A DNA stretch of 64,000 nt from Arenicellales bacterium (GTDB taxonomy: Bacteria > Pseudomonadota > Gammaproteobacteria > BMS3Bbin11), in contig JBLYYR010000200.1 of NCBI GenBank assembly GCA_048550195.1, forward strand, positions 3,721-67,720, in the 5' to 3' direction. The translations under genes were made by a program, and so were the position numbers. This document shows positions 9,530 to 52,331 of the stretch, piece after piece. Below the pieces are notes generated by a model. The model was not told the origin of the DNA. It made no database searches and saw only the letters and a list, made by a program, of their open reading frames with translations. How positions within the stretch are numbered: position 1 is the first letter of the stretch; every line of letters starts with the position of its first letter.

Positions 9530-10597
9530 TTAACCATCCATAAGAAGATTGCGCAAATCGATAATGGCGGCATTGGCGCGCGAAATATACGATGCCATCA
9601 CCAGTGAATGGTTGGCGACTAAACCGAAGCCGCTGCCATTCAGGATGATCGGGCTCCAGACAGGATCCTGGGTGGATTCCAGTTCACGGATAATCTGACG
9701 TAGGCTGACGATGGCATTTTTCTTACGCAATACCGCTTCAAAATCAATTTCCACTGCCTTCAGGAAGTGCAGCAGTGCCCAGGCCGCGCCACGCGCTTCA
9801 AAAAAGTTATCGTCGATTTTTGTCCACGGTGTTTTAACGATCATATCATCCGGTGTCGGTGTAGAATGGGTTGCATCGGCATCACCGGCAAGGTCGGTAT
9901 TGACGCGCAGCTGACCGACACTGGCAGATAAGCGCTGCGACAGGCCGCCCAGTCGTTTCTCGACTATCTGCAACCAGTTTCTCAGATTATCTGCACGGGT
10001 ATAAAGCTGAGCATTGGTAGAGTCCGCATCTACCAGTCGACCGAGATAGGACTCCAGAGCATCAATCCCCTTGAGATAGGAGCCTTCAGCGGATGGAAAC
10101 ATCCATGACTCGCTATTGATACTAAACTGCGGCTCCGCCACCATCAGATCCCGGTCTTCCAGCGACTGTGATTGCGAGCGGCTCAGTTCGTTGCGCATGG
10201 CACGTGCCAGGTCACGCACCTGCACCAGCACACCGAATTCCCAGTTAGGCATATTATCCAGCAATACTGAGGGAGGCATAACATCATTGCTGAGATAGCC
10301 TCCCGGTTTATCCAGTAAAGTACTGCTAACGGTAATCAATGCGGCCGTTGTGACACTGCCCGGAATTATCTTTGCTTCTTCTGTCTGCCCGGTAACTCTC
10401 TGCATATTTTCAATTACATCAAACATAGCAGGCGTTCTGCTCCAGTATATAGAGAGCAATATCATCAGCAGGGTTATCAGAAATGTAGCCATACCTAATG
10501 ACCAGCGCAGGCCTTTTTCCTTCCATGTAGCGGGTTTTAATACACTGCCTACGGCACTACCTGCTACCCTTGCCTGTTGCTGGAGTTTGTTATTCAT
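9530..10597 (-). CDS. membrane-anchored DUF2333-like protein (family assignment from memory)
   Basis: 355 aa, one N-terminal TM helix (LGMATFLITLLMILLSIYW), no catalytic motifs; divergent from the GTPase pair. Confidence 0.5.
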   Translation of the reverse strand: MNNKLQQQARVAGSAVGSVLKPATWKEKGLRWSLGMATFLITLLMILLSIYWSRTPAMFDVIENMQRVTGQTEEAKIIPGSVTTAALITVSSTLLDKPGGYLSNDVMPPSVLLDNMPNWEFGVLVQVRDLARAMRNELSRSQSQSLEDRDLMVAEPQFSINSESWMFPSAEGSYLKGIDALESYLGRLVDADSTNAQLYTRADNLRNWLQIVEKRLGGLSQRLSASVGQLRVNTDLAGDADATHSTPTPDDMIVKTPWTKIDDNFFEARGAAWALLHFLKAVEIDFEAVLRKKNAIVSLRQIIRELESTQDPVWSPIILNGSGFGLVANHSLVMASYISRANAAIIDLRNLLMDG

Positions 10598-10686
10598 GTA
10601 TGCTTGTCCGATGGTTGGAATTTACCACGATTAAACCCGTCTTACTCTATCATGTATATGCTGCCGTTCCTGAAAATCACAATAAA

Positions 10687-12156
10687 ATGAAAATACTTCG
10701 CTATTTACTGGCCGCCGGCGTTGTCCTGCTGTTCCTGCTGCTGGTCGTCATTACAGGCATGGCAGGCGACACCTTACTCTCACTATGGGACAGGCTGCAA
10801 ACCGCCCCCTGGTATATTGCCAGCCTGTTTGCCCTCATATTGCTGACCTTTAGCAGTGCCAGTGCCATCATGCTCTGGAAACTGCTACGCCCGGCAAAAA
10901 AAACCGGGGCACAGAAAGAGATAATAGATGAAGCCAGTCTGCAGCAGCGCATAGAGGATGCCAAAGAAAGTGGCATTGAGATTGAAGCTGCCAGAGAAGA
11001 ATTGCGCAAGCTCCAACAGCGGCGAAAAACAGGCAAACTCTACATCGCCCTGACCGGCACCATCAGCACCGGGAAGAGTAGCCTGATCAATAGCCTGCTA
11101 CCAGCGGCAGAAGCACGCTCCAACGTGACCGGCGGTACAACCAGAGAAATCACTGAGTATCACTGGCTCACACCCTCTGCTGATGAAGTTATTCTTATCG
11201 ATATGCCCGGCCTGCTGGATGCTGCAAATAATGAGTTGAGTGATATTGCACGCAGTGAAGCCATACGAGCACATCTGGTTATCTATCTCTGTGATAGTGA
11301 CCTGACTCGCCAGCAATTGCATGAACTGAAACTGCTGGCAAAACTTAACAAACCACTGATACTCGCTCTCAATAAAAGTGACTGGTATAGCGACGAGGAA
11401 CGACAGAAAATACTGCAGCGACTGCACGAACACACTGAAGAAATTTCTGACATCACTATTGTTGCTATAAGCGCCCGCAGCGAGAAGCAGGTCACGGTAA
11501 AACAGCCAGACGGGACTGAGACAAAAGAACTTCGTCGCACAGAACCTGATATCAGGGAGCTTGCCCGTGCCCTGCAACGACGTATCGACAACGATCCTGA
11601 AAGACTTGAAAAATTACGTGACAGTGCCATCTTCTCACTTGCAGCTCGCAGCCTTGATGAAGCAGAACTTCGGCAGCGGTTCGAAAAAGGGCAGGTACTG
11701 GTTCGCAACCATACACGCAGTGCTGTTGTTGGTGCGATGGCTGCAATCAGTCCCGGTACAGATATTTTGATTCAGGGTGCGCTTGGCATTAGCCTGGTCA
11801 AAAGCCTTTGTTCATTGTATGACATCCCAGTCAGCCAACTTGAAATAGACCGGTTGCTTAAACTCGGACAATCAAGGCTCAATCGCCACATTGCACTGGT
11901 TATGGCCGTCCTCGGCAATGCTATGAAGGCCTTCCCCGGCCTTGGTACGCTGGCCGGTGGTGCCCTGCATGCGGTAACCTATGGAATGATATTCGATGCG
12001 CTGGGACGCAGCCTGAACGAAACACTTGCCAGTCGTGGCGAGCTGGCAACCCTGCCGGTAATTAACCGATTCACGGAGAACCTTGGTGATCAACTGGAAA
12101 AACGTAGCAGCGACATTATCCGGCTGGTCCTGGAGTCCAGGGACAAACAGGGATAA
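10687..12156 (+). CDS. membrane GTPase with C-terminal DUF697-like domain (paralog A); start taken at MKILRYLL rather than ORF-track 10570
   Basis: N-terminal TM helices, coiled coil, G1 GTISTGKSS, G3 DMPG, G4 NKSD, then hydrophobic DUF697-like tail. Confidence 0.75.
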   Translation: MKILRYLLAAGVVLLFLLLVVITGMAGDTLLSLWDRLQTAPWYIASLFALILLTFSSASAIMLWKLLRPAKKTGAQKEIIDEASLQQRIEDAKESGIEIEAAREELRKLQQRRKTGKLYIALTGTISTGKSSLINSLLPAAEARSNVTGGTTREITEYHWLTPSADEVILIDMPGLLDAANNELSDIARSEAIRAHLVIYLCDSDLTRQQLHELKLLAKLNKPLILALNKSDWYSDEERQKILQRLHEHTEEISDITIVAISARSEKQVTVKQPDGTETKELRRTEPDIRELARALQRRIDNDPERLEKLRDSAIFSLAARSLDEAELRQRFEKGQVLVRNHTRSAVVGAMAAISPGTDILIQGALGISLVKSLCSLYDIPVSQLEIDRLLKLGQSRLNRHIALVMAVLGNAMKAFPGLGTLAGGALHAVTYGMIFDALGRSLNETLASRGELATLPVINRFTENLGDQLEKRSSDIIRLVLESRDKQG

Positions 12157-13483
12157 TACACCTGCCAAGGCTGTAAAAGCAGTAGCGAAATCAGCGACAG
12201 AAAAATCAACGAACCATCACCTTGCCCTCGCACGCGACAGCCTGTCACGTCTACTGGAGGATGAACACATCCCCCAGTCTGTGCGCGAAGGACTGGATAT
12301 TGAATACCAGGGCATACAGGAGCTTCTTGACAAGATAGAAAACAACGAAATCCACATCGCCGTTATGGGGCGGGTCAGCGTTGGTAAGTCCTCACTACTC
12401 AATGCCATGCTAGGCAGTAAAGTTTTCACAACCAGCCCGTTGCACGGCGAGACGCGCAAGCTTGATCGCAGTGCCTGGCAATCCTACGACAGTGGCGGAG
12501 TATTCCTGATCGATACACCCGGCCTGGATGAGGCCGATGGTGAACAGCGCGAAAAGCTGGCAATTGAGGCCGCTGCACAGGCCGATCTTATCCTCTTTGT
12601 GGTCGATGGAGACCTGACGCAAAGCGAACTGGACAGCATGAAGATTCTGCAGCAGCAAAATAGCATAGTACTGCTGATATTAAACAAGGTAGACCGCTAC
12701 AGTCCCGATGAGCAACAGCAGCTTTTGCAATCTTTGGCTGCACATACAGCCGGCATCATCGCGGACGAAAATATTCTAAGCAGCTCCGCAGCCCCGCCCG
12801 CACAATTCCTGATCACGGTTGATGAAACAGGCCATGAATCGGAAACCCTGCGTGAGCTCGAACCGGATGTTTCTGCACTGACAAGTCGCCTGTGGCAGAT
12901 CATAGAACAGGACGGTCGCAGCCTGGCGGCACTGAACGCAAGCCTGTTTGCCGCTCATGTCACCGATAAAGTCTCGGCAAAAATACTCGAAACACGCAGA
13001 GGCCTGGCGGAAAAAGTCATTCGCTACTACTGCATTGCAAAAGGAATCGGCGTCGCCGCCAATCCCATACCACTTGCTGATCTGGCTGCTGCCGCCGCCC
13101 TGGACAGTGCGCTGGTCTATCACCTGTCACGCGTCTATGACCTGCCGATGAGCCGGCGGGAATCAGGCAAACTGGTCGCCGCCATTTTTGCCCAGCTGGC
13201 CGCTCTGATGGGAGCCATATGGACCGTACACCTTGCCTCCAGCCTACTAAAACTCAGCAGTGGCGGACTTTCCACTGTGTTGACAGCCACCTCTCAGGGG
13301 GCCATTGCCTATTACGGCACCTACCTGGTAGGACAGGTTGCCCAACGCTATTTCGAAAAAGGGAAATCCTGGGGTGAAGGCGGCCCGAAGAGAGTCATTG
13401 AAGAGATCATGGCCAGCCTGGACAAGGATTCGATAATTGAAGGTGCGCGAGAAGATATATTGATGCGGATTAAGGGGACTTAG
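12083..13483 (+). CDS. membrane GTPase with C-terminal DUF697-like domain (paralog B); TTG/GTG start overlapping paralog A by ~70 nt
   Basis: G1 GRVSVGKSS, G3 DTPG, G4 NKVD; C-terminal PIPLADLAAAAALDSALVYHLSRVY DUF697-like segment. Confidence 0.7.
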   Translation: MVINWKNVAATLSGWSWSPGTNRDNTPAKAVKAVAKSATEKSTNHHLALARDSLSRLLEDEHIPQSVREGLDIEYQGIQELLDKIENNEIHIAVMGRVSVGKSSLLNAMLGSKVFTTSPLHGETRKLDRSAWQSYDSGGVFLIDTPGLDEADGEQREKLAIEAAAQADLILFVVDGDLTQSELDSMKILQQQNSIVLLILNKVDRYSPDEQQQLLQSLAAHTAGIIADENILSSSAAPPAQFLITVDETGHESETLRELEPDVSALTSRLWQIIEQDGRSLAALNASLFAAHVTDKVSAKILETRRGLAEKVIRYYCIAKGIGVAANPIPLADLAAAAALDSALVYHLSRVYDLPMSRRESGKLVAAIFAQLAALMGAIWTVHLASSLLKLSSGGLSTVLTATSQGAIAYYGTYLVGQVAQRYFEKGKSWGEGGPKRVIEEIMASLDKDSIIEGAREDILMRIKGT

Positions 13484-13882
13484 ATCGTATGTCGTATGTC
13501 GTATGTCGTATGTCAATATCATGAAGACCTAAGACCATTGCTGTCCCACAAAGAAATATCAATCGATGAGTAAGTGTTGATAGTGCTGCTTTTACGGAAG
13601 CTTAGGGCTTCGGAGACATGAAAAACAGCCTTCCCAAACCTGAAGAACAAAAAGAGTTCTCTCGCGGGGTTCACAGGGACGCAGGGAGGTCAAAGGCTTT
13701 TTTCCTGTAAATCAAAATATTCTTTCTTTTGCTTTCCCTGCGGGCCCTGCGAGAAAAGAGTATTTCTGCTGTTTGCCTGATGCGTGCTCAGAGTCAAATA
13801 TGACAATGGAAAGTTTATGGGACAGCAATGACCTAAGACATACGACATACGACATACGACACACGACGTACGACGTACAACA
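13484..13882. mobile_element. MITE-like nonautonomous element bounded by ~55-bp terminal inverted repeats built from (TCGTATG)n heptamers plus CTAAG(A/G)(C/T)CATTGCTGTCCCA
   Basis: left arm 13487-13550 cgtatgtcgtatgtcgtatgtcgtatgtc...gacctaagaccattgctgtccca; right arm 13813-13880 is its reverse complement; ~260 bp unique interior with no ORF; sits between convergent genes. Confidence 0.6.
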
Positions 13883-14677: not shown

Positions 14678-14863
14678 GCCTTAGGCATGCGCAGCGGATT
14701 TTCTATCCCTGTCATTCAGATAAATGTCATTGACTATATTAGAGTTTTATAATATAGTTTTAAGCGCATGGCAAGAATGTAAATGTAACAGAGACACGCT
14801 GGGAAAATATCTGCTATGGGGATTCCGGCATATAACTTTAACTTTATTTTTTGGAGATTTCAT

Positions 14864-15427
14864 ATGAAACTCGTACAGATTGTATCAATTGCTGCTTTAA
14901 TGAGCATGTCAGCTGCTTCTTCAGCTTTCTGGGGCAGAGGCTATGATGATGGCTACGGTAATGGTTCTGGTTCTGGTTATGGCGATGGTTATGGCCGTGG
15001 CGATGGTTCCGGTTATGGCTCTGGCAATACCAGAGGTCGTGGTGATGGACGTGGCGACATGGACGGCGACATGGACGGCGACGTCGATGGCGAATTCAAC
15101 ATGAGCTTTAAAGGCAAAGGCAGTGGTCGTGGGCGTGGTGCTGGCCGTGGCTACGGTTCAGGTTATGGATCTGGTTATGGCGACGGTTATGGCCGTGGCA
15201 ACAACACCTACCGTGGCGATTACCGTGGCAACTACTACGGCGGCAATCGCTATGGTTCTGGCGGTTATGGCGCACCTTACGGTGGCGGTTACGGCGCACC
15301 TTACGGTGGCGGTTATGGCGCACCTTACGGTGGCGGTTACGGCGCACCTTACGGTGGCGGTTATGCACCTGCTCCAGGGATGCAGGCGCCTGCAGCTCCA
15401 GCACCTGCTGCTCCAGCTGCAAAGTAA
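14864..15427 (+). CDS. secreted Gly/Tyr-rich low-complexity repeat protein (start at MKLVQIV with GGAG RBS; ORF-track start 14816 is too early)
   Basis: signal peptide [21 protein letters not shown]; GYG/GSG repeats, acidic GDMDGD block, four perfect GYGAPYGG repeats, Ala/Pro tail. Confidence 0.8.
15262..15360 (+). repeat. 24-bp perfect tandem repeat x4 (ggcggttatggcgcaccttacggt) encoding GYGAPYGG units
   Basis: direct reading of 15262-15357; causes spurious antisense ORFs. Confidence 0.9.
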
Positions 15428-15457
15428 TAAAAACCCTTTAAAAAGTTTTATTACTGA

Positions 15458-15495
15458 AAAGGCCCGTGTGGAAATCCACACGGGCCTTTTTGTTT
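15458..15495 (+). terminator. rho-independent terminator of the Gly/Tyr-rich gene
   Basis: ggcccgtgtggaaatccacacgggcc then tttttgtttg. Confidence 0.85.
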
Positions 15496-15538: not shown

Positions 15539-16777
15539 TTAAAAATAATACCCCAGCTCGATCTGCAAAAAATCATCCTCCGCAAACGATCTTAAAGACT
15601 GATCCAGTCCATCCACGAGGAATTTACTGGCCTGGATTGACAGCTTCCAGCTATCACCAATTCGACGATGGGCTTCCAGGCTGATGAGATAGCTATCATC
15701 GTCTGTATCCTTGATCACACCAAGCAGTGCGTCGGTACTCTGTTCATCATTCAGGGTCAGCCTGAGTCCCGTCATGATGTCATCTTCAAATGGCGTAGTC
15801 GCCAGCTCACCACGGGAATCATAGAGATATTCCATCACCAGACCAAGGTCGGATGCACTGCCAGCAAGGCCATAAAACGTGTATTCAAAACCTCCCGTGG
15901 CACGCTGGTATTTCACATAGTTACCATCGAGATTGATGGCTTCAAGCTTCCATAGCCAGCTGCCGCGGGTCAGCTGCATATCAAGACCTGCCTGGTCTAT
16001 GATCTGGTAAAACGGTTGTAGTACAACTTCTCCATTGTATTGGGCAGGGGATAAAATAGGCTCCCTGCTGGTTCCGTGAAACCATGACAGACCAATATCC
16101 ATGTCGCCGATGGCATGCGACCACCTGGCAGCAAGGTCGATATGTTTTTCTTCCTGAGATGATTCATAACTGGTCAGGTCTTTCTCGACGCGAGGAATAA
16201 CACGGGGGCGACCTTGAACGCCTGCAAAGGTGCGCTCACGGAAACCGGGCAGGACAAACAGATCAACGGTCCCCCAGTCACGGATAAGCGCAAGCTTGAC
16301 CATCGGCTGGCCAAGTTTTTCTTCCCCGTCGAAATCTTCAACCAGATCGGTCTGGTTGATAATATCGACCAGGTGCTGAGCCTCAGTGACACCCCAGTAA
16401 ACCTTGCTGAGTCCAACTGTCCACTCATAGTCTCTGGCGATATATGACCAGGACAGCTCCCTGATGTCAGCATGCGTGCGTTCATCATCACCCTGATCCA
16501 GACGAACAAAGGGGATAAAGCTTATGTTCTGCTTGCCATCAGCCCACTCATGATACATTTCAGGTTGCGCTGCGACAGAAAAATTACTCCCGTGTTGCCT
16601 GGGGTCTGCCGGATCCCGTAGAAATAATCTTTCCTGAACCGTGACATTACCCCTCAGGCTGACAGACTGTGCGGAAGATGAGAAAATTACCAGCCATATT
16701 GCGGTCATCAACAGCTGGCTTTTAAGGGCAGCTCTATTAATTCTGGATATGCCAGATTGTGATTCTAAATCTGTCAC
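15539..16777 (-). CDS. outer-membrane beta-barrel protein of an MMPL-exporter cluster (DUF1302-like?); start uncertain (GTG 16777 or ATG 16708)
   Basis: signal-peptide-like MTAIWLVIFSSSAQSV, alternating beta-strand pattern, C-terminal ...LGYYF aromatic terminus typical of OMPs. Confidence 0.55.
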   Translation of the reverse strand: MTDLESQSGISRINRAALKSQLLMTAIWLVIFSSSAQSVSLRGNVTVQERLFLRDPADPRQHGSNFSVAAQPEMYHEWADGKQNISFIPFVRLDQGDDERTHADIRELSWSYIARDYEWTVGLSKVYWGVTEAQHLVDIINQTDLVEDFDGEEKLGQPMVKLALIRDWGTVDLFVLPGFRERTFAGVQGRPRVIPRVEKDLTSYESSQEEKHIDLAARWSHAIGDMDIGLSWFHGTSREPILSPAQYNGEVVLQPFYQIIDQAGLDMQLTRGSWLWKLEAINLDGNYVKYQRATGGFEYTFYGLAGSASDLGLVMEYLYDSRGELATTPFEDDIMTGLRLTLNDEQSTDALLGVIKDTDDDSYLISLEAHRRIGDSWKLSIQASKFLVDGLDQSLRSFAEDDFLQIELGYYF

Positions 16778-16846
16778 ATCAAAGCAAGTATCGTACAGTC
16801 GTTCAATGACATCCTGTCATCACGGCACTTGTGCATCCTTGCACGT

Positions 16847-16943
16847 CGTAATAGCCTGCTATTGCGAAGATTCTTAACGCAGAAGTGGCAGATTTTGGAC
16901 TCAAGATGCTTATTCATGGATTATATAGAGCTTCCCTTATGCA
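16847..16943 (+). repeat. ~95-bp repeat element, copy A (hairpin cgtaatagc/gctattgcg then AAGATTCTTAACGCAGAA and TATATA box)
   Basis: 27-bp identical core gctattgcgaagattcttaacgcagaa shared with 63637-63663; ~75% identity over ~90 bp. Confidence 0.75.
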
Positions 16944-17723
16944 TTAACGTGCCCGTTTTAGAGAGTTACGATCAAAGTCACGATCGGTAAAGCCATTATT
17001 GAAGCTATAGTTGGAAAACTTCAACAGCGTACTTTTTCCATTCTGGTGATTATCCATCAACATCTGCTCAGGACGCCAGTATTTATCCAGATATTGCTTG
17101 TAATCGATCAGCACCAGCGTCTTCAGTATGGCATTTTTGCGATCATAAAATTCTACCTTTAATGGTTGGTAGATTACCTTGTCACCCCAGACTATCTGTC
17201 TCGTGTAACCGGAGTTTTTATCTACCGGCACCCGTTCAAGAACATAGACATCCTTGCCGTCCAGCTTTTCATCCCGTAACCACTTGTAGGTGTATTTGTC
17301 GACTTCCTGTGATGACATATCTTCGAAAGCAAATTCACTTCCCATAAATGGCCCGGATTTATTTTTTGATGCAATACGCTTGACGCGTTTCAGGGCCGGC
17401 AGATACAGCCACTGGTCATCCGGTTTATTAACATGGGTAAAACTTAAAAAAGCCGTGCCCTTGACGTCGGCCGGCGAATCAAAAATAGACATCGATTTGT
17501 CGCCATCACCGGTGACTTCCAGTGCACGGCCGCGAATTTTCCGACTACTCTCCTTACCCTGTTTGTTACGCAGAATCATTTCAAGAGTCTGCTTCTGATC
17601 CCCCCAGCCTGTATCCAGCTCATCGGCTTTCTGTGCGATCTTCAGGCCTTTTTCTTCAGCGCTAAGCGCCCAGGCAGGTATAATAAATAAACTAAGCAGT
17701 GCTAGCAGCAGTATTTTTTTCAT
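16944..17723 (-). CDS. outer membrane lipoprotein-sorting (LolA-like) protein; start at ATG 17723 with GAAGGAAAA RBS
   Basis: signal peptide MKKILLLALLSLFIIPAWA; usually found beside MMPL/RND exporters. Confidence 0.65.
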   Translation of the reverse strand: MKKILLLALLSLFIIPAWALSAEEKGLKIAQKADELDTGWGDQKQTLEMILRNKQGKESSRKIRGRALEVTGDGDKSMSIFDSPADVKGTAFLSFTHVNKPDDQWLYLPALKRVKRIASKNKSGPFMGSEFAFEDMSSQEVDKYTYKWLRDEKLDGKDVYVLERVPVDKNSGYTRQIVWGDKVIYQPLKVEFYDRKNAILKTLVLIDYKQYLDKYWRPEQMLMDNHQNGKSTLLKFSNYSFNNGFTDRDFDRNSLKRAR

Positions 17724-20016
17724 TAGATTTTCCTTCAATTTTCATTAGTAATGGTGGCAATAGCAGGAAGTCAGCAAGCAAGGCCAGGGCAATGACTAAT
17801 GCCGTTAATAAACCCATGTCGGAATTCAGCCTGAATGCAGAGAATGACAGCACCAGGAAGCCAGCTATCAATACGACTGAGGTAACTAGCAGGGCACGGC
17901 CTACACTGGTAAAGGCATAACGCACCGCCTGCTCTGGATCGTAGCCCTTTTCAACACGGGCACGTCGGTATTTACTCATGTAATGCACCGTGTCATCGAC
18001 AACGATACCCAGTGTCATACTGGTGACTACTGACAACCCCAGACCGACTTCACCTACAAAAATCCCCCAGATACCAAAGCCCATAGCAGCTGGAACGAGG
18101 TTAGGAACCATGCTGGTCAAGCCCAGCTTGAAAGATCGCAATGCGATGACCATGATCAGCGATATCAATATCAGAGCTATCGTTGTCCCCGCCAGCATAC
18201 TGATGATATTACGCTTGCCAATATGCGCAAACATCATTGTCGGTCCGCTGGCCGCAGCGGCCTTTATGTAGCTGGCATTTTCGACTAACCATTGATCTGA
18301 ACGCTTTTCAAGCTCTATCAGCTGATTGGTTGACAGCGTCTGCAGTGTCACAATCATGCGTGTTGCTGATTTATCGACGTTGATCTGGTTATTCAGATCC
18401 AGCCCATAGGGTAATGACATCTCATACATCAGCAAATACTGGGCGGCCAGATTGCGCTCACCCGGTAAACGATACATTTTATTGTTATCGCCATGCATGT
18501 TTCGGTTCAACCGTTTCATGATATCTGTATAGACATTGACATGAATGGTCTCTGGTTGTGAGCGGAACCAGTTGGCAAAATCTTCAACTTCCTGCTGAAA
18601 CTCCGGATCACTTATGCCGCCCGGTTCTGCTGACTCGACAGAAAAATCGATGAGATACATACCTGTTAAATTTTCCACAGTAAAATCTGTCGCCTGACGG
18701 AACTGAATGCTTTCATCGAAGTATTCAACAAACACATCATTCAGTTCATTGCGAGGCAGGAATGACACGAGTACCACCACCAGCAAGGCCATTCCTGGCA
18801 GCAACAATCGTTTGTTGTTGACGACGAAATCACCGAGCCAGATCATCAGCCTGTCGCCTTTCTCGTGACGCACACGCACTTTAACAGGCAACAGGCTGAT
18901 CACCGCTGGAAGGAACGCCACAGCAAGCAGGAAAGACATCCCAACACCTATTGCGACAAAGTTACCGAGGTGATTAAAAGGCGGGACGTCGGAAAAGTTC
19001 ATGCTCAGGAAGCCAATTGATGTCGTCAGACTGGTCAGGAAAACGGGTTGCAGATTGACACGCAGACTTTCTACCATGGCCTCAATCTTTGCCATACCTT
19101 CTCGCATGTAATGATAAAACGATACCAGCACATGTACTGAATTAGCTATCGCCACGGTCAGGATCACAGTGGGTGCCGTGGCACTCGGCGGTGTGATCGG
19201 ATAACCTATATGGCCACCTGCACCCATCGCCGACATGACTGACAGGATGATGACTATCATTGTTAATACAGTTCCTGAAAAACCTCTAATCATCAAAAAC
19301 AGCATGATCATCATTACCAGAAAGCTTATTGGTATCAACGACGTCATATCATTCAATGAAGCCTCGGAAAAACCATTATTCATCATGACCATGCCGGTCA
19401 TATAGATTTTAAGGAATGGATATTTTGCCTCAATTTCAGCAGCCAGCTTGCGTGCATGTGCGACCACTTCTGGTGTTTCGGTGGTTTCATCTATTCCTGG
19501 TAATTGTACGGTGACATTTACCGCTGTCACATGGGCGCTATCGGAAATCAATCGGTGGAGCAGAAGAGGTTCATTTACGGCGATGTTCTTAATGTATGCC
19601 AGTCGCTCAGTTGTAAGTAAGGCGGGATCTTCAACCAGGTCTTCCACCAGTAAATCATCCCCCTCCGCCTCGGTATGCTGATAGTTGGTCAACGAATCCA
19701 CCCTCGAAGAATAGGGTGTCTGCCATGCCTTATGAGTCAGTTCATAGATCGCTTCCAAAACGGGTTTTGTAAACACCACGCCATCTTCAGGAGCAATAAC
19801 GAACATAACGTTATCATTTTTAGCATAGGTTGCTTCCAATGCTTCAAAAGCCATACGCTGGGGATTATCCGCACTGAAGAACACTCGATAGTTGGTTGTC
19901 ATTGACAGGTGCTTCCCACCACTTGCCATAAAAGCTACCAGTAGCAAACAGCCAATAATCACTAACCAGCGATACTGAATAACCAGCTCACCAAATTTTT
20001 TTTCAAAGTTATGCAT
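17692..20016 (-). CDS. MMPL/RND-superfamily exporter (COG1033-like, 12 TM)
   Basis: 774 aa, two large periplasmic loops and two 6-TM bundles. Confidence 0.8.
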   Translation of the reverse strand: MHNFEKKFGELVIQYRWLVIIGCLLLVAFMASGGKHLSMTTNYRVFFSADNPQRMAFEALEATYAKNDNVMFVIAPEDGVVFTKPVLEAIYELTHKAWQTPYSSRVDSLTNYQHTEAEGDDLLVEDLVEDPALLTTERLAYIKNIAVNEPLLLHRLISDSAHVTAVNVTVQLPGIDETTETPEVVAHARKLAAEIEAKYPFLKIYMTGMVMMNNGFSEASLNDMTSLIPISFLVMMIMLFLMIRGFSGTVLTMIVIILSVMSAMGAGGHIGYPITPPSATAPTVILTVAIANSVHVLVSFYHYMREGMAKIEAMVESLRVNLQPVFLTSLTTSIGFLSMNFSDVPPFNHLGNFVAIGVGMSFLLAVAFLPAVISLLPVKVRVRHEKGDRLMIWLGDFVVNNKRLLLPGMALLVVVLVSFLPRNELNDVFVEYFDESIQFRQATDFTVENLTGMYLIDFSVESAEPGGISDPEFQQEVEDFANWFRSQPETIHVNVYTDIMKRLNRNMHGDNNKMYRLPGERNLAAQYLLMYEMSLPYGLDLNNQINVDKSATRMIVTLQTLSTNQLIELEKRSDQWLVENASYIKAAAASGPTMMFAHIGKRNIISMLAGTTIALILISLIMVIALRSFKLGLTSMVPNLVPAAMGFGIWGIFVGEVGLGLSVVTSMTLGIVVDDTVHYMSKYRRARVEKGYDPEQAVRYAFTSVGRALLVTSVVLIAGFLVLSFSAFRLNSDMGLLTALVIALALLADFLLLPPLLMKIEGKSNEKNTAASTA

Positions 20017-20051
20017 TATGTTGTCCCAGGTAGAATCTACTACGTTATTGT

Positions 20052-20648
20052 TTATTTTCTTAGGCCATTAATCATAAGAGTGACGACATTGACTGCCATC
20101 TTTTCAAATTGCTCGAGGGAATAAAGTTGCATAAAAAACGGGGTTGAGAACAACGCTGTGGCCTTAACTACAGCAGCAGCTGTTTTGTTTACATCTTCAA
20201 TCAAAAATTCATCACCATCGACACCCTGCTGTAGAATTCTCGCCACCAGGCTTTCCATATTCTGGTTGCGTTCATGAATTAGCTGTGGATGGTTTGTGGT
20301 GATATTTTCAACCAGTTCATTGAGACGCGGGGCATCGTGCATCATTTCGAAGAAGAAGTGCAATGCCGTCTGCACAAACATATGAAGCCGTTGTATAGCG
20401 TCAAGGTTCGGAAGATCAACCACGTTCTTCAGCAATAAATGCAGTTCGGCCATGCACCGGTCTGCGCATTCGACGGCAATGCCCTGCTTGCTGTGAAAAT
20501 ACCGGTACAGATTGGCGGCAGACATATTTACATCTTCAGCAATCTCAGCCATGGTTGTTTTGCCATAACCATACCGCCTGAAGCGTTTCTGTGCAGCGTC
20601 AAGGATCCCGATCCTGATTTGATCTGTTTGCAGTTGGGATTCCGTCAT
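20052..20648 (-). CDS. TetR/AcrR-family transcriptional regulator (start at MTESQ with AGGAAA RBS)
   Basis: HTH GYGKTTMAEIAEDVNMSAANLYRYFHSK. Confidence 0.85.
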   Translation of the reverse strand: MTESQLQTDQIRIGILDAAQKRFRRYGYGKTTMAEIAEDVNMSAANLYRYFHSKQGIAVECADRCMAELHLLLKNVVDLPNLDAIQRLHMFVQTALHFFFEMMHDAPRLNELVENITTNHPQLIHERNQNMESLVARILQQGVDGDEFLIEDVNKTAAAVVKATALFSTPFFMQLYSLEQFEKMAVNVVTLMINGLRK

Positions 20649-20777
20649 TATTCTTTTCCTGATAAAGAAAGGGGAAATAATCATACGCCCTGAATAATGA
20701 ACATTCAATTTAATATTCACAAACTAGGCTAAAAATTCAAAGCTAATCGCTGAAAGGAGCGACAGGAATGTTAGCTT

Positions 20778-26391: not shown

Positions 26392-28620
26392 TCATGATTT
26401 ATTACCCGGCTTCCAGAAACGAAGTCGATTTGCGTTGGTCACGACAGTCACTGAAGACATGGCCATAGCTGCGCCTGCCACCATGGGATTGAGTAACAAA
26501 CCACTAACAGGATAAAGGACCCCTGCCGCAACGGGTATACCGACACTATTATAAACAAATGCGCCAAACAGATTCTGCCAGATATTTTTTACCGTCGCAC
26601 GGGAAAGTTCTATGGCAACAGGAACACCGCGTATCGACCTTCCCATCAGGGTTATGTCGGCACTTTCTATAGCTACGTCTGTTCCGTTACCAATGGCAAA
26701 ACCCACATCAGCTCGTGCCAGTGACGGAGCATCATTCAAACCGTCCCCCACCATCGCAACCCTTTCTCCGTCATCCTGTAACTGACGAATGATCTTTTCC
26801 TTTTGGTCGGGTAATACTTCTGCAAACACCTCATCTATTCCGACGATGTCGGCCACTGCTTCTACCGAGGCCTGGCGGTCACCACTGAGCATGACAGTCC
26901 TGATATTTAGCTTGTGCAGGGCCTCAATGGTCGCAGCAGAATCCTGCTTAACCTGATCTTCAATCAGTATCGCCCCTGATAACACGCCTGCTGTTGCCAA
27001 TAAAACCGGTGTGGCAACGGAGCTGGCTGAATTTGCCAGCAGCCCCTTAAGTTCATCGAGATTGACTTCATGCTCTTTCATCAACCGCTCATTCCCGAGC
27101 AGCACAGTCTCACCCCGGCATACTGCCTTTACACCCTGACCGGCAATTGCTTCAAACTGCTCAACATTCAGGCCCACAATATTTCTCTTTTTAGCCGCCT
27201 CTATAACGGCTTCAGCCAGAGGGTGCTCAGAGCTTTTTTCCATACCGGCGGCCAGCGCCAGCATCTCTTCTTCGGAATCACTTAGTGTCAGTATTCGACT
27301 GACTTCTGGTTTTCCTTCTGTAATCGTTCCTGTTTTGTCTAGCACAACGACCGATATTTTGCCAGCCAGTTGCAGGGCCTCGCCGTTACGTATAAGTACC
27401 CCGTGTTCGGCAGCTTTGCCTATACCTGCCATGATCGAGATAGGCGTGGCCAGCCCCAGTGCACAGGGGCAGGCAATGATGAGTACTGTCATCATGGTTA
27501 CCAGCGCGTAAGCTGCTTTTGGCACGGGTCCGAAATTGAACCAGACCAAAAATGTCAGGATGGCAATAATCAAAACTGCCGGTACAAATACTGAGGCAAT
27601 ACGGTCTACCAAACGACCGATGGCAGGTTTGCTGTTCTGCGCATCCCTGACCAGCTCTATAATTCTTGCGAGGACGCTTTCACTGCCGATGTGGCTGGCC
27701 TTGAACAGAAAACTCCCGCTTTTGTTTAGTGTACCACCAATAACAGTGTCACCCGCTTTACGTAGTACGGGCAGTGGCTCTCCTGTCAGCATCGATTCAT
27801 CAATATTGGAGCTTCCCTCGATAACATCACCATCAACCGGTATTTTTTCTCCGGGGCGAACACGCACAGTCTCATCCAGTCCGACATCTGCAATCGGGAC
27901 ATCCAGCTCCCTGCCGTCACGCATAACACGCGCCGTCCGAGGTTGCATACCGATCAGGCGCTTTATCGCTTCTGACGTTTTTCCTCTGGCACGCATCTCC
28001 AGGGCATTGCCGAGATTAACCAGTGTAATGATCACTAATGCAGCTTCAAAATAAGCATGCTGTGCAAGGCTTGGCACCAAATTGGGGAGGAGAACTACGG
28101 CGATGGAAAATAGCCATGCCGATCCGGTTCCGAGGGCAATCAAAGTGTCCATATTGGCATTATGGTGGCGCAGGGCATTCAGTGCACCGCTGAAAAAATG
28201 ACCACCAGAATAGATCATGACCGCCAGAGTGACTGCACCGGTTAGTAGCCAGAATATCTGGCCAGCAGGGGTAGTGACAGGCGGTAGCCAACCGAACATG
28301 CCGGCCAGAAATAATGGCAAGGCCACAATTCCAGCCACCGCTGTTTTGCGCATCAGGCGCTGATAATAAACAAACTCAGCAAGCTCTTTATCCTCTTCAT
28401 CAGCAACACCGCGCATAACAGCGGCACCATATCCCGCTGCCATAATTGCTTCGACAACATCTTCTACCGCCGCCTCACCGGAATAACTAGCGGTATGATC
28501 TGCAAAATTCACCACCGCCTTTTCGATGCCGGGAACAGCAGACATGGCGTCTTCGACTGACCCTACGCAACCTGCACACGACATGCCGGTAACAGACAGG
28601 CGATAGTGTTGTTCAGTCAT
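26392..28620 (-). CDS. copA: copper-translocating P1B-type ATPase
   Basis: N-terminal GMSCAGC metal-binding domain, CPC, DKTGT, HP, GDGLND motifs. Confidence 0.92.
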
Positions 28621-33980: not shown

Positions 33981-36900
33981 TCAATTCTCATTTTCTCTCG
34001 CCTCACGCATTTTCCACATCAAGAATACCGCTGGAATTATGATGAGCGTCAACAAGGTTGCACTGACCATGCCACCAACCATGGGTGCTGCAATTCGCCG
34101 CATTACTTCAGAACCAGTACCTGACCCCAGCATGATAGGTAGCAGGCCGGCGATAATAGCCGCTACGGTCATCATCACCGGGCGCACCCTTAAAAGTGCG
34201 CCGTTGACTACCGCATCCTTTAAATCTTCAATACCCGGTTTACCCTGACGATCAACATTCATCTTTTTCCATGCCTGGTTAAGGTAAACCAGCATCACTA
34301 CCCCGATCTCTACCGCAACGCCAGCCAGTGCAATGAACCCGACACCAACAGCTACCGATATGTTGTACTCAAGAAAATACAACAACCAGAACCCACCTGT
34401 CAGAGCCAGCGGCAATGTCCCCATGATGATTAGTACTTCGGTCATGTTTCTGAAGTTGAGGTATAGCAATAGCAGTATTATTGCCAATGTAACAGGTACT
34501 ACTCTGGCCAGGCGCTGTTTGGCCCTTACCATGTATTCATACTGTCCCGACCAGGAGATTGAATAGCCGGCAGGCAGCTTCACCTTTTCAGAAATAGTTC
34601 GTTGTGCTTCGGTGACGTAGGATCCCAGGTCACGGCCCTCGATATCTACGAAAGTCCAGCCATTAAGCCTGGCATCCTCGGATTTGATCATTGCCGGCCC
34701 TGACTCAATCCGTATGTCCGCTACTTCGCCGAGCGAAATGCTGGCACCCATCGGGGTAACAATTGGCAAGTTACGTAATTTCTCTACCGAGTTTCTAACA
34801 TCACGAGGGTAACGAATATTTATTGGGTAACGCTCAAGACCTTCAACGCTTTGAGATACATTCATGCCACCGACAGCGGCCATAATCACGGATTGTATAT
34901 CCGCAATATTTAGCCCCAGTCTGCCGGCATCACGTCGCCGTACATCAACGGTAACATAGCGCCCGCCAGCAACACGTTCAGAGTACGCTGAGACCGTACC
35001 CGGCACGGTCAAGATGATTTTTTCAACATCCTTACCGATCTCCTCAATGACCTTAAGATCCGGCCCGGCAACCTTGATACCTACCGGTGTCTTAATCCCG
35101 GTCGCCAACATGTCGATACGTGTTTTGATTGGCATTACAAAGGCATTTGTAAGCCCCGGGAACTTGATCAGCTGATTAAGCTCACGGCGTAATTTTTCGG
35201 TCGTCATACCCTCACGCCATTCATCTTTCGGTTTAAGCTGGATGGTTGTTTCGATCATCGTCAAGGGTGCGGGATCAGTAGCAGAATCTGCCCGCCCGAT
35301 CTTTCCGAATACCGACTTGACCTCAGGTACAGTCTTTATCAATTTATCCGTCTGCTGCAATAACTGCTGCGCCTTGCCGATAGAGATACCCGGAAAGGTT
35401 GTTGGCATATACATGATATCGCCTTCATCCAGATCCGGCATAAATTCAGAACCAATTCGGGTCAGCGGATAGAGGCCACTTGCTGCTACTGTAAGGGCGA
35501 CAATTAGAACGATGACAGGCGCTTTAAGTACCAGCTTTATTACTGGCCCATAGATTGCCATTAATAAGCGGTTTACCGGATTTTTATGCTCAGGCGTGAT
35601 TTTCCCCCTGACAAAATACCCCATCAGCACCGGCACCAGTGTTATGGACAGCAATGCCGCTGAGGCCATGGCAAAGGTCTTGGTAAACGCCAGGGGTGCA
35701 AACAGTTTGCCCTCCTGGGCTTCCAGAGTAAATACAGGAAGAAATGACAAAGTAATTATTATCAGGGAGAAAAATAATGGTGGGCCAACTTCAATAGAAG
35801 CCTGCCTGATCAGTTCCCAGTGGTCATACTTTGCATCTCCTTCACGTTCAATATGTTTGTGCACGTTCTCTATCATCACAATCGCCGCATCGACCATCGC
35901 ACCAATGGCAATCGCGATGCCTCCCAGTGACATGATGTTGGCATTCATCCCCTGTGACTGCATGATGATAAATGCGGCCAGTATGCCAACCGGCAGTGAC
36001 AATACGATGACCAGTGCTGAACGTAAATGAAAAAGGAAAACCAGGCACACCAGGGCAACGACTATAAACTCTTCTATCAGTTTTCCGTTCAAATTCTTTA
36101 CTGCACGGTTAATCAGGCTGGAACGGTTATAGGTTTCAATTATTTCTACACCTTCAGGTAAGCCATTTTGCAGCTCTTTGAGCTTGGACTTAACACCTTC
36201 GATAGTCGTCAGTGCATTTTCACCATAGCGCATGACAACCACACCGCCGACGACTTCCCCTTCACCATCAAGCTCTGCTATGCCACGACGCATCTGCGGA
36301 CCGGTACGGATATCAGCAATATTTTTTAATTGTATTGGTGTGCCGTTATCGCCTATGGCGACAACAATACTTTCCAGATCCTGATTCTTTGATATATAAC
36401 CCGTCGATCGGACCATATATTCTGCTTCGGCCATCTCAATAACAGAACCGCCTACTTCCTGATTTGCACGCTGTATCGATTTTTTAATCTTACTTAAGGG
36501 GATGTTATAGGCACGAAGTTTGTTCGGGTCGATGACCACCTGATACTGCTTCACCATACCGCCAATGGTGGCGACTTCAGATACACCATCAACAGTCTGT
36601 AATTCAAACTTAAGAAACCAGTCTTGCAAACTGCGCAACTCGGCAAGGTCGGTTTTACCCGTACGGTCAACCAGCGCATATTGATATACCCAGCCGACAC
36701 CAGTGGCGTCAGGGCCCAGCGAGGGCACCGCCTGTGGCGGCAATTTTGCAGTTACCTGGTTGAGATATTCCAGTACTCGTGATCGGGCCCAGTAAGGGTC
36801 TGTGCCATCTTCAAAGATGATATAGACATAAGAATCACCAAAGAATGAGTAGCCACGTACAGTAGTCGCTTTTGGTACCGACAACATGGCGGTAGTCATC

Positions 36901-37103
36901 GGGTAGGTAACCTGATCCTCTACCACCTGCGGTGCCTGTCCCGGATAACTCGTTTTTACGATGACCTGTACGTCGGATAAGTCCGGGATAGCATCAAGCG
37001 GTATGGTGCGAATGGCATTGATTCCCCAGGCAACAACAACGGCCGTTAGCACAAGAATCATAAAACGGTTCTTTAATGACCAGTTTATAATGAATTCAAT
37101 CAT
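33981..37103 (-). CDS. cusA: heavy-metal (Cu/Ag) efflux RND permease CusA; start at MIEFIINW (ATG 37103, GGGGAA RBS), 4 nt after the cusB stop
   Basis: near-colinear with E. coli CusA from MIEWII.. to ..PAAYKLMW; Met cluster and AIGAMVDAAIVMIEN motif. Confidence 0.92.
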   Translation of the reverse strand: MIEFIINWSLKNRFMILVLTAVVVAWGINAIRTIPLDAIPDLSDVQVIVKTSYPGQAPQVVEDQVTYPMTTAMLSVPKATTVRGYSFFGDSYVYIIFEDGTDPYWARSRVLEYLNQVTAKLPPQAVPSLGPDATGVGWVYQYALVDRTGKTDLAELRSLQDWFLKFELQTVDGVSEVATIGGMVKQYQVVIDPNKLRAYNIPLSKIKKSIQRANQEVGGSVIEMAEAEYMVRSTGYISKNQDLESIVVAIGDNGTPIQLKNIADIRTGPQMRRGIAELDGEGEVVGGVVVMRYGENALTTIEGVKSKLKELQNGLPEGVEIIETYNRSSLINRAVKNLNGKLIEEFIVVALVCLVFLFHLRSALVIVLSLPVGILAAFIIMQSQGMNANIMSLGGIAIAIGAMVDAAIVMIENVHKHIEREGDAKYDHWELIRQASIEVGPPLFFSLIIITLSFLPVFTLEAQEGKLFAPLAFTKTFAMASAALLSITLVPVLMGYFVRGKITPEHKNPVNRLLMAIYGPVIKLVLKAPVIVLIVALTVAASGLYPLTRIGSEFMPDLDEGDIMYMPTTFPGISIGKAQQLLQQTDKLIKTVPEVKSVFGKIGRADSATDPAPLTMIETTIQLKPKDEWREGMTTEKLRRELNQLIKFPGLTNAFVMPIKTRIDMLATGIKTPVGIKVAGPDLKVIEEIGKDVEKIILTVPGTVSAYSERVAGGRYVTVDVRRRDAGRLGLNIADIQSVIMAAVGGMNVSQSVEGLERYPINIRYPRDVRNSVEKLRNLPIVTPMGASISLGEVADIRIESGPAMIKSEDARLNGWTFVDIEGRDLGSYVTEAQRTISEKVKLPAGYSISWSGQYEYMVRAKQRLARVVPVTLAIILLLLYLNFRNMTEVLIIMGTLPLALTGGFWLLYFLEYNISVAVGVGFIALAGVAVEIGVVMLVYLNQAWKKMNVDRQGKPGIEDLKDAVVNGALLRVRPVMMTVAAIIAGLLPIMLGSGTGSEVMRRIAAPMVGGMVSATLLTLIIIPAVFLMWKMREARENEN

Positions 37104-37107
37104 GACA

Positions 37108-38418
37108 TTATTCCCCGTCACCCATGCGCGTCAGACTTCCCTTAAGGCTGGCTTCTGAATCAATCAGGAATTGACCGGAGATAACTACTTTTTCGCCTCC
37201 CTGCAGGCCATCAAGGATTTCGGTGTATTCACCAGATTCAATCCCTGTTTTTACTTCGCGCGCATAAAACTTACCGCCCTCTTTTGCTACCAGCACGCGC
37301 GTCATTCTGCCACTGTTTATTATTGCTTCACGTGGTACAAACAGAGCATCCTGTTTGATGCCTGAATATAATTTCACATTGGCATACATATTTGGTTTCA
37401 GACTTTCATCCGGGTTGTCAAACTGCAGCCTGACCCGCAGGGTACGGGTCTTTTTATCCAGCTCAGGATAAACATAGACAACATCGCCCTGCCGTGTCTG
37501 CCCGGGTAAAAATGATAGTGATATCTCAGCTGGCTGTCCTTGTTTTACCCAGCTCGCCTGCTGCTCAAACACTTCAACCTGCACCCAGACTTTAGAAAGA
37601 TCAACCAGCGACATGATTCGTGTTGCCGGTTTCACAAACATGCCCTGTGGTGTGTTCAGTGATGTAACAATGCCATCCTGAGGTGCGCGAAATGTGACAT
37701 GCTGTTTTACTTTTCGCGTCTTTCTGAGTTCATCTATCTGGTCAGAAGAGATATCCAGTGAGGATAAGCGGTCTCGCGAAGATCGAATCAGGCGCTGGTT
37801 TTTTGATTTCAGTGCCTCCAGGTATTCCTCCTGGGCATTGACCAGCGTCGGGGAATACAACTCGAACAGGGGGTCCCCCATTTTCACCCGTTCACCTTCG
37901 TTAGTAACGTAAAGTTTCTCAATCCAGCCTTCGATTCGAAGATGTATATGGCCGATAAGCGATTCATCAAAGGACACATATCCGACAGTATCAATCATGC
38001 GGCCCAGGCGCCCTCTCTCAGCCATTGCCGTGCGAACTCCAAGGTTTTGTACCATTGCGGGAGAGATAGTGACGGCACCTGCATCGTCACCTGTTTCCTC
38101 ATAAACCGGGACCAGGTCCATTCCCATGGGTGACTTACCGGGTTCATCCCGACGGTAATTAGCATCCATCGGGGCGACCCAGTAAGCAATTTTTTTCTCT
38201 TTTTTTGCAGTCATCGTGTCTTTGTATACGGGTATTAAATCCATTCCCATGGGTGACTTGCCTGGCTTATCTTTTTTATAGTTCGGATCCATCGGGGCAA
38301 CCCAGTAGTCAACCTTTTTCTCCATATCCTCACCTGACATTTCACCCTCTGTTGACTCACCACACGCACTCAGCAGCCCTGCTGATAACAGGATCAATAT
38401 TAATTTCAATTTTTTCAT
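37108..38418 (-). CDS. cusB: efflux RND periplasmic adaptor CusB with tandemly duplicated Met-rich N-terminal metal-binding motif
   Basis: lipoprotein signal LLSAC; two copies of YWVAPMD(P/A)NY..PGKSPMGMDL(I/V)PVY; membrane-fusion beta-barrel/hairpin domains. Confidence 0.88.
   Translation of the reverse strand: MKKLKLILILLSAGLLSACGESTEGEMSGEDMEKKVDYWVAPMDPNYKKDKPGKSPMGMDLIPVYKDTMTAKKEKKIAYWVAPMDANYRRDEPGKSPMGMDLVPVYEETGDDAGAVTISPAMVQNLGVRTAMAERGRLGRMIDTVGYVSFDESLIGHIHLRIEGWIEKLYVTNEGERVKMGDPLFELYSPTLVNAQEEYLEALKSKNQRLIRSSRDRLSSLDISSDQIDELRKTRKVKQHVTFRAPQDGIVTSLNTPQGMFVKPATRIMSLVDLSKVWVQVEVFEQQASWVKQGQPAEISLSFLPGQTRQGDVVYVYPELDKKTRTLRVRLQFDNPDESLKPNMYANVKLYSGIKQDALFVPREAIINSGRMTRVLVAKEGGKFYAREVKTGIESGEYTEILDGLQGGEKVVISGQFLIDSEASLKGSLTRMGDGE
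38088..38319 (-). repeat. ~115-bp tandem duplication inside cusB encoding the duplicated Met-rich motif
   Basis: ccattcccatgggtgactt(a/g)cc(g/t)gg...atccatcggggc(g/a)acccagta repeated twice. Confidence 0.8.
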
Positions 38419-48552: not shown

Positions 48553-48608
48553 TTCATAATTTTGACACCCGACACACGACATACGACCCATGACCTACGA
48601 CTTACGAC
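48553..48608. repeat. solo degenerate heptamer tract (cgacacacgacatacgacccatgacctacgacttacgacc) related to the MITE termini
   Basis: same ACGACATACGAC heptamer register as 13836-13880. Confidence 0.6.
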
Positions 48609-51527: not shown

Positions 51528-51627
51528 TAATCATTCCGTATGATGTGGAGTATTAAAGACGACTAGCGACGGGAAAACTATTGGGTTGATTCGGGAGAGG
51601 GGTCAGGGTATACCCTGAAAAAGAGAC

Positions 51628-51693
51628 GTTTTAGGTTTTACGTATTATGTTTTACGAAAAACCTGAATTTTTAATACGTAATACGTAATACGA
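51628..51693. repeat. REP-like repeat copy 6
   Basis: gttttaggttttacgtattatgttttacgaaaaacctgaatttttaatacgtaatacgtaatacg. Confidence 0.8.
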
Positions 51694-51697
51694 AAAG

Positions 51698-52327: not shown

Positions 52328-52331
52328 GAAT

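Follow-up and report, generated by a model that had tools for sequence, protein, structure and literature searches.

At positions 14864-15427 of a 64-kb stretch of Arenicellales DNA (contig JBLYYR010000200.1; the whole stretch is called the window here) lies a gene for a small, Gly/Tyr-rich precursor protein that, judged by its sequence, is probably a long-form SgpA/SgpB (CV1/CV2, PF17228) sulfur globule protein (Sgp). The gene forms a transcription unit by itself, equipped with a promoter and a terminator and flanked by one divergent and one convergent neighbour (Table 1), and in this organization it resembles the sgp genes of Allochromatium vinosum, which are monocistronic and have their own promoter and a rho-independent terminator (PMC10386293). 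The original prediction, made from the letters of the window, had assigned a strong terminator to the gene, and a hairpin with a 17-bp stem followed by a T-run was indeed found downstream of the stop codon. On the upstream side, the promoter block TTGACTATATTAG..TTAT.ATATAGT showed no change in 8 of 8 aligned orthologous upstream regions, despite a synonymous divergence of 0.35-1.5.

Conservation, parts and repeats of the gene

Searching the GTDB species genomes with the Zn-peptidase encoded next to it yielded 28 loci. Each of the five closest ones (74-90% peptidase identity) carries a syntenic, divergently transcribed sgp ortholog, and the gene order MMPL - LolA-like - 412-aa protein - sgp - Zn-peptidase - GTPase is common to all five. 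The products of these five genes are 82-94% identical to the window protein; ten further orthologs were recovered from JGI metagenomes with a degenerate DNA pattern, bringing the total to 15. In comparison with the five orthologs from genomes, the ratio of non-synonymous to synonymous substitution rates (dN/dS) lies at 0.085-0.153, and the sequences differ in length only by multiples of three. A chance open reading frame (ORF) across a GC-rich simple repeat, and thus no gene at all, might have been suspected from the low complexity of the sequence and from exact product look-ups, which matched no called gene on record (there was no record for the window protein with either of its two possible starts, for two of its neighbours or for a further protein, P0189). 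However, this reading is excluded by the pattern of conservation and retains next to no probability: there are 15 orthologs with frame-preserving indels and a dN/dS of 0.09-0.15, and the promoter, the ribosome-binding site and the terminator are conserved as well. The ORF at 14864-15427 is a real gene under purifying selection.

The 187-aa product contains all the parts that had been read from the sequence before, namely a signal peptide, GYG/GSG repeats, an acidic block and a Pro/Ala tail. The Sgp-like precursor is predicted to be exported via a Sec signal peptide, for which AlphaFold2 gives a helix at residues 2-20. In the family alignment of 38 members, W23-G24 is invariant right after the predicted cleavage site and A19 and A21 are nearly invariant, and a mature end of the type A[FW]WG occurs in 91 of the 121 proteins scanned. 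The same alignment shows W23-G24, the acidic block, the core, the basic block, APYG and the Pro/Ala tail in a common order. Residues 22-64 align to the first half of the PF17228 profile (positions 1-48), and the region of aa 96-133 is mostly an insertion relative to short Sgps that is kept among the orthologs.

The mature part is composed of 36.7% Gly, 13.9% Tyr, 9.0% Ala, 7.8% Asp, 7.2% Arg and 6.0% Pro, and the whole protein is devoid of His and Cys. With ~16.3 kDa (isoelectric point ~8), the mature protein falls inside the range of 15-18.5 kDa that has been given for the Sgp of organisms possessing just one (PMC7356093). AlphaFold2 modeling on the 38-sequence alignment gave no fold (mean predicted local distance difference test score, pLDDT, 51.9); the signal-peptide helix was the only helix, and the Pro/Ala tail appeared in an extended conformation (pLDDT 76-80). 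The absence of a modeled fold is consistent with a non-globular structural protein that depends on assembly.

Table 1 Features of the sgp-like gene and of other elements in the window
Feature	Position	Strand	Residues	Details and basis
Sigma-70-like promoter	14730-14758	+		-35 TTGACT (14730-14735), 17-nt spacer, -10 TATAGT (14753-14758); consensus scan
Conserved 5' leader	14765-14863	+		~100 nt; carries the GGAG ribosome-binding site
Ribosome-binding site GGAG	14853-14856	+		7 nt upstream of ATG
Sgp-like coding sequence	14864-15427	+	187 aa	followed by TAA stop
Sec-type signal peptide (predicted)	14864-14926	+	1-21	n-region MK, hydrophobic core, S-S-A motif; predicted cleavage between SSA and FWG
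N-terminal Gly/Tyr/Ser/Asp repeat region	14927-15055	+	22-64	opens with family-typical FWG; Tandem Repeats Finder 6- and 18-bp arrays
Acidic block	15056-15094	+	65-77	Tandem Repeats Finder 12-bp array, 3.4 copies
Non-repetitive core FNMSF	15095-15109	+	78-82	family signature [DE]-F-x-M-x-[FM]
Basic block	15110-15148	+	83-95	residue counts after core
Second Gly/Tyr region with Tyr/Arg-rich stretch	15149-15262	+	96-133	family alignment
Four exact GYGAPYGG units	15263-15358	+	134-165	exact 48-bp DNA block, twice
Pro/Ala-rich C-terminal tail ending in AAK	15359-15424	+	166-187	sequence
Intrinsic terminator	15455-15492	+		17-bp stem with 9 G-C pairs, 4-nt loop, T-run; scan
Two tandem GTPases	10570-13483	+		second one with Dynamin_N and DUF697
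Module convergent with sgp	15539-20720	-		TetR, MMPL (RND), LolA-like, 412-aa protein without Pfam match
Heavy-metal P-type ATPase	26392-28620	-		
cusCBA-like genes	33981-39683	-		
Second small secreted Gly/Tyr/Pro-rich protein	48099-48530	+	143 aa	
Sensor kinase, regulator and binding-protein set	50553-54779	-		TtrS-like sensor kinase, LuxR-type regulator, periplasmic binding protein
TtrS-like histidine kinase	52332-54779	-		335 bits to NF040750 (cut-off 750)
Type I SQR	57931-59205	-		617 bits, full length, to A. ferrooxidans SQR (PDB 3sz0)

Tandem Repeats Finder located an 18-bp array of the GSGYGD type at 14968-15019, a 12-bp GDMD array at 15053-15093 and a 24-bp array at 15259-15365 (4.5 copies, 95% matches, score 200). 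The original prediction had described the last of these as four exact repeats in both protein and DNA. This holds at the level of the peptide, which has GYGAPYGG four times, but not at the level of the DNA, where the 24-bp units differ in their first Tyr codon (TAT in units 1 and 3, TAC in units 2 and 4). With TAT and TAC alternating, exact identity in the DNA is seen for a block of 48 bp present twice and not for one of 24 bp present four times, and this twofold block suggests that the array was recently doubled from two to four GYGAPYGG units. With four units the window is at the top of the observed range, the 15 orthologs having approximately one to three units of the GYGAPYGG type.

Differences in repeat length were also seen between close relatives, whose identities are given here as nucleotide identities of the flanking DNA (L and P numbers are our handles for loci and proteins, respectively). 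Two units are present in L003 and L039, which are 98.5% identical to each other, and three in L046 and L047, which are ~96% identical to those two. Between L005 and L048 (97.5% identical), the tail differs by one APMMQ unit, and L004 and L043 (95.4% identical) differ by GG. The predicted length polymorphism was thus borne out, with two versus three copies at ~96% nucleotide identity, which is about species level. In the closest short gene predictions from metagenomes (P0001-P0003), the frame is lost within the repetitive N-terminal part of the gene, which may reflect the difficulty of assembling such repeats.

Relation to the sulfur globule proteins

The Pfam family SGP (PF17228; profile length 93, gathering score 26.7 bits) is the sole specific Pfam family match of the window protein, and scanning it against NCBIfam gave no meaningful match. 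All five syntenic orthologs score above the cut-off (29.1, 30.6, 33.9, 46.6 and 29.7 bits), and three of the five span the profile from position 4/8 to position 91/92 of 93. An exhaustive phmmer search among 1.84 billion representative proteins returned only 57 matches at E <= 1e-3, many of which share one architecture: a signal peptide, A[FW]WG, a G/N/Y-rich part, an acidic GDxDG[DE] stretch, a DF[SN][MI][ST]F core, a basic KGKGR/GRG stretch, a G/Y part and a Pro/Ala tail. When the window protein and 30 of the phmmer matches were scanned, 13 of the 31 matched PF17228, with six matches above the cut-off. Cluster names yielded nothing useful. A profile search seeded with the above-cut-off proteins retrieved entries named 'sulfur globule protein CV1 [Sedimenticola sp.]' and 'sulfur globule family protein', as well as 'sulfur globule protein [Thioalkalivibrio sp.]' and 'Sulphur globule protein' (NCBI or JGI names).

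In these sequence comparisons, the feature that separates the Sgp family from unrelated Gly/Tyr-rich proteins is a 31-residue core with a charge dipole. A scan of 121 proteins, most of them annotated with PF17228, for the core motif [DE]-F-x-[MFIL]-x-[MFL] found it together with the dipole in 105. The core of the window protein reads EFNMSF, and its dipole is exaggerated relative to the family: the 12 residues before the motif plus its first residue include 7 acidic and 0 basic residues (family mean 3.6/0.1), and the 16 residues after the core (aa 83-98) include 5 basic and 0 acidic ones (family mean 2.8/0.4). The profile of the 31-residue core scored 31.6 (probability 87.9%) against the profile of PF17228 members, 28.6-40.7 (79-95%) against P0014, P0058 and P0028, and 35.1-63.8 (up to 97.8%) against sub-threshold Sgp-like matches. 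P0064, P0052 and P0045, which like the former three proteins lie above the PF17228 cut-off, reached only 19.6-22.2 (8-30%). Unrelated Gly/Tyr-rich controls and the second repeat family described below stayed at <=20 (probability <=11%), in alignments of 1 to 8 columns.

We take CV1 and CV2 of A. vinosum to be the founding proteins of PF17228, in line with the 'CV1' names in databases. Compared on the basis of the family alignment and a published description (PMC10386293), the window protein is like SgpA and SgpB in having a Sec signal peptide, an [FW]WG mature end, an acidic stretch, the D-F-x-M-x-M/F core, G-R-G, Gly/Tyr/Pro repeats, a Pro/Ala tail and the periplasm as target. It differs from the SgpA/SgpB family in its length, the mature protein having ~166 aa versus a family median of ~99. 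The additional residues are insertions, comprising a longer N-terminal GYG/GSG region, a tripled DMDG acidic block, an Arg/Tyr-rich stretch and extra GYGAPYGG units (four exact). It further differs in its low Trp content (0.5% versus a family mean of 3.0%) and in containing more Gly, Tyr and Arg.

The Sgp of Beggiatoa leptomitoformis D-402 (ALG67575.1; 15 kDa) was identified by mass spectrometry and is the sole Sgp candidate discussed for this organism; in strain D-401, a transposon is inserted in the sgp gene, and neither sulfur storage nor lithotrophic growth occurs (PMC7356093). A comparison with Beggiatoa had been proposed as a check, and it revealed the same order of parts: signal peptide, [FW]WG, acidic stretch, core, G-R-G, repeats and Pro/Ala tail. 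The B. leptomitoformis sequence has ...AHA followed by the mature end WWG..., then GSGWGDFNMSMGGGGRGYGR, Y/G/A/P repeats and ...PAPAAPEAK; its core DFNMSM is followed by GGGGRGYGR, and the protein is collinear with the window protein and of a similar size class. The tail ends in AAK in the window protein, in PAAPEAK in B. leptomitoformis and in APAPDAK in B. alba. Unlike the window protein, the B. leptomitoformis Sgp has repeats of the GYAPAPYAGYG type instead of GYGAPYGG and lacks long acidic and basic blocks. The 'sulfur globule protein CV1' of Sedimenticola sp. (P0143; 63.1 bits against PF17228) has a DFNMSF core nearly identical to EFNMSF, and related repeats are present in both proteins. 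In contrast to the window protein, P0143 is short (113 aa) and has a helical extension rich in Q/E/A/M at its C-terminus, and in the Sedimenticola loci examined its gene is not located beside the Zn-peptidase gene.

SgpC and SgpD of A. vinosum are exported proteins of the globule envelope that are repetitive and have regularly spaced prolines, and long alpha-helices are predicted for SgpD (PMC10386293). The window protein, compared with this description, is likewise exported (as predicted), repetitive and equipped with regularly spaced Pro. An SgpD-type protein was considered and rejected, since the AlphaFold2 model contains no long helix or coiled coil of the kind described for SgpD (PMC10386293). 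A C-terminal Q/E/K/A/M-rich, probably helical extension after the Pro/Ala tail was observed in some other family members, namely P0024, P0139, P0143 and the product of L040 8132-8869 (+), an ortholog-like metagenome copy of 239 aa; this extension is reminiscent of the helical SgpD. Sgps have long been likened to Gly/Tyr-rich keratin-associated proteins and plant glycine-rich cell-wall proteins (PMC10386293), with which the window protein has its composition and a presumed structural matrix role in common. Homology to these families was not found in Pfam, where KRTAP gave E = 0.78 and GRP gave E = 0.082 for the other Gly/Tyr-rich ORF of the window only.

The sqr gene noted in the window before was confirmed as encoding a type I SQR (617 bits to 3sz0), and the TtrS-like histidine kinase scores below the cut-off of its NCBIfam model (Table 1). 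This kinase belongs to a set that also comprises a LuxR-type regulator and a periplasmic binding protein and is located ~3 kb from the SQR gene; for the binding protein, the matches to ModA, CysP and sulfate-binding proteins are partial and remain below threshold. The set may constitute a sulfur-compound sensing module. Of the related loci, L004 is labeled Arenicellales and L002 is the metagenome-assembled genome (MAG) BMS9Abin25, which has been placed in Arenicellales f__BMS3Bbin11 (PMC11427306). Most of the MAGs studied there and their close relatives are reported to have soxABXYZ together with the oxidative Dsr-Apr-Sat pathway (PMC11427306), and for a related MAG the published sulfur-oxidizing context extends to a truncated Sox system plus oxidative Dsr. 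Such genes are characteristic of bacteria whose sulfur oxidation proceeds via stored sulfur. The more remote relatives recovered with the Zn-peptidase comprise Sedimenticola, Thiolapillus and endosymbionts of tubeworms; for the Riftia symbiont, sgp genes, sgpA among them, have been reported to be transcribed (PMC11636981).

Several points weigh against the assignment as an Sgp. The function is assigned by homology throughout, and neither dsr nor sox genes are present within the 64-kb window. The window protein itself scores 21.5 bits against PF17228 (E = 4.4e-4), which is below the gathering score. BLASTP against the Sedimenticola CV1 protein aligned only the 12-residue core to FNMSFSGRSNLR (E = 0.006), and BLASTP against the B. 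leptomitoformis Sgp gave no match. In hhalign, unrelated GSGYG-rich N-termini (P0013, P0016 and P0018) reached 70-92 with the same ortholog query that was used for the Sgps. Finally, PF17228-like segments were also found fused to OmpA and Yx(FWY)xxD lipoprotein domains, and therefore the PF17228 motif may not be exclusive to globule envelopes.

As for the scores, 21.5 bits lie within the range of accepted Sgps, because the Sgp of B. alba (22.7 bits) and an NCBI-named Thioalkalivibrio Sgp (23.8 bits) fall below the cut-off, too; the Sgp of B. leptomitoformis reaches 27.7 bits. BLASTP is uninformative for proteins of this composition. When the ortholog profile was compared over its whole length with the alignment of PF17228 members, hhalign gave a probability of 99.5% (E = 1e-22), and the mature parts scored 98.3 versus 12.4 +/- 2.4 for 100 column shuffles. 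Because unrelated Gly/Tyr-rich segments reach 70-92, this whole-length score reflects mostly composition and periodicity and is not trustworthy, and we dropped it as a proof of family membership and kept the test restricted to the core. The sulfur-globule-type reading of the original prediction is accordingly supported by orthologs above the PF17228 cut-off, by the core and by the architecture, but the composition on which it had drawn is insufficient by itself, as unrelated Gly/Tyr-rich proteins score nearly as well when profiles are compared over their whole length.

A generic Gly/Tyr-rich structural or matrix protein of the periplasm or cell envelope, with an adhesive, biofilm or envelope-stiffening role, might have a low-complexity module in common with Sgps and yet not coat sulfur. 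Such a protein would fit the mostly compositional nature of the whole-length similarity, the OmpA and lipoprotein fusions and the occurrence of the same GYGAPYGGG module in a second, distinct family. However, the window protein agrees with experimentally supported or so-named Sgps in its non-repetitive core, its mature N-terminus and the arrangement of its parts, the orthologs pass the SGP model, SQR is encoded in the window, and the named relatives retrieved all come from sulfur oxidizers (Sedimenticola, Thioalkalivibrio, Beggiatoa and Thioflexithrix), and we consider a generic envelope protein unlikely. Far less probable still is a periplasmic copper-binding protein with prion-like octarepeats that would be tied to the cusCBA-like and P-type ATPase genes of the window. 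The Prion_octapep model (PF03991) does match aa 131-169 with 31.3 bits, just under its cut-off of 32, but GYGAPYGG lacks the His and Trp that serve as copper ligands in PHGGGWGQ, and the match reflects only the periodicity of Gly/Pro/aromatic octamers. The metal genes are, moreover, 11-24 kb distant and on the opposite strand, and the copper reading is rejected because the protein contains no His.

Neighboring and related elements

The 5' leader of the sgp-like gene is more strongly conserved across species than synonymous sites. Its folding showed no significant structure (z = 0.19), and a search against Rfam gave no family above the threshold, only terminator look-alikes. The leader may help to determine how stable, or how well translated, the mRNA of a very highly expressed gene is.

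The two tandem GTPase genes are located just upstream of the Zn-peptidase/sgp pair. A Dynamin_N protein (L033 10075-11586) is also encoded a few genes from another PF17228 gene (P0028), and this proximity may be a coincidence. Heptamer arrays of the type (TACGACA)n are over-represented in the window, with 12 matches versus 0.54 expected (13484-13881 and 48560-48610). Two inverted arrays, each beside a ~25-nt inverted repeat (..CCTAAGACCATTGCTGTCCCAC / GGGACAGCAATGACCTAAGAC..), bracket ~325 bp between the GTPase and Zn-peptidase genes, an arrangement that resembles an insertion of the type of a miniature inverted-repeat transposable element.

On its other side, the sgp-like gene faces the convergent module that includes the MMPL (RND) gene. 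An HAE exporter gene adjoins sgpD in A. vinosum (PMC10386293), and an MMPL gene is adjacent both in the clade of the window and beside P0007, an unrelated protein with GYGAPYGGG repeats. At L032 (10426-16963), a WMEEM-family member likewise adjoins MMPL/BNR/DUF1329/DUF1302 genes. A general link between sgp genes and MMPL/RND exporters is not supported: no such adjacency exists in five other contexts, and the identity between the two MMPL proteins is only 21%.

In the second small secreted Gly/Tyr/Pro-rich protein of the window (143 aa), a CxxC (ECKSCQEHRNGGS) and another pair of Cys residues are invariant, and it has the heptapeptide YYGGNRY in common with the Sgp-like protein. It has no significant match in Pfam (only GRP, E = 0.082) and none in NCBIfam. 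Only 21 homologs were found among 5.8 billion proteins, one of them 100% identical ('hypothetical protein ACN4GR_11635 [Arenicellales bacterium]'). Conceivably, this protein is a further component of the envelope or one with a redox role.

Small secreted proteins of a distinct family from metagenomes (P0004-P0010, P0012, P0015 and P0017; loci L030 and L032) combine GYGAPYGGG repeats with a Pro/Ala tail. The N-terminal domain of this family is different (..CNPYDEWDPRYWMEEM..DDDDYY), and the family has neither a PF17228 match nor any annotation. The common GYGAPYGGG module suggests, at the sequence level, that these proteins form another, so far undescribed class of candidates for globule or envelope proteins.

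Proposed mechanism and implications

The mechanism that we propose builds on the known Sgp envelope around periplasmic zero-valent sulfur (PMC10386293). The precursor would be exported by the Sec system and cleaved after SSA, and the mature protein of ~16.3 kDa would self-assemble in the periplasm into a thin envelope around the zero-valent sulfur made by SQR and Sox, so that the hydrophobic sulfur would stay dispersed and within reach of rDsr, which would oxidize it later. Contacts between subunits, side by side or head to tail, would probably be mediated by the charge dipole, that is, by the acidic block, the FNMSF strand with its alternating hydrophobic residues and the basic G-R-G block, and the Tyr/Gly/Pro repeats and the Pro/Ala tail would probably form an extended layer facing the sulfur. 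The GYGAPYGG array may grow and shrink by slippage or unequal recombination, changing the length of the protein and leaving the core unaffected.

A more speculative possibility, which we regard as quite improbable, is that the long form acts as a sticker-and-spacer polymer and not as a simple monolayer 'skin', or, in a related version, that it is a partner of the convergent TetR-MMPL-LolA-like-outer-membrane module. If the former were true, Tyr-Arg contacts and the acidic/basic dipole would drive the formation of a condensate-like coat that wets sulfur droplets, and the fast-evolving copy number of GYGAPYGG would tune the thickness of the coat or the size of the globules. If the latter were true, the module would handle hydrophobic sulfur or its organic end groups.

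Returning to the gene as a probable Sgp of the SgpA/SgpB type, what is new here is an unusually long member of this family with a recently expanded, polymorphic repeat in an uncultured lineage; the family is known, and no new kind of system is involved. For annotation, the example illustrates that genuine Sgps fall on both sides of the Pfam cut-off, that scores from BLAST and from whole-length profiles cannot be relied on for such proteins and the 31-residue core with its dipole is the discriminating feature, and that the C-terminal repeat is length-polymorphic within species. Beyond its value for annotation and as a marker, both the type of protein and the type of organism in which it occurs are as expected. 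As a simple marker, the gene indicates that uncultured Arenicellales of marine sediments and hydrothermal sites (near f__BMS3Bbin11) probably store zero-valent sulfur in protein-coated periplasmic globules, and such storage would affect how the role of this lineage in sedimentary sulfur cycling is modeled.

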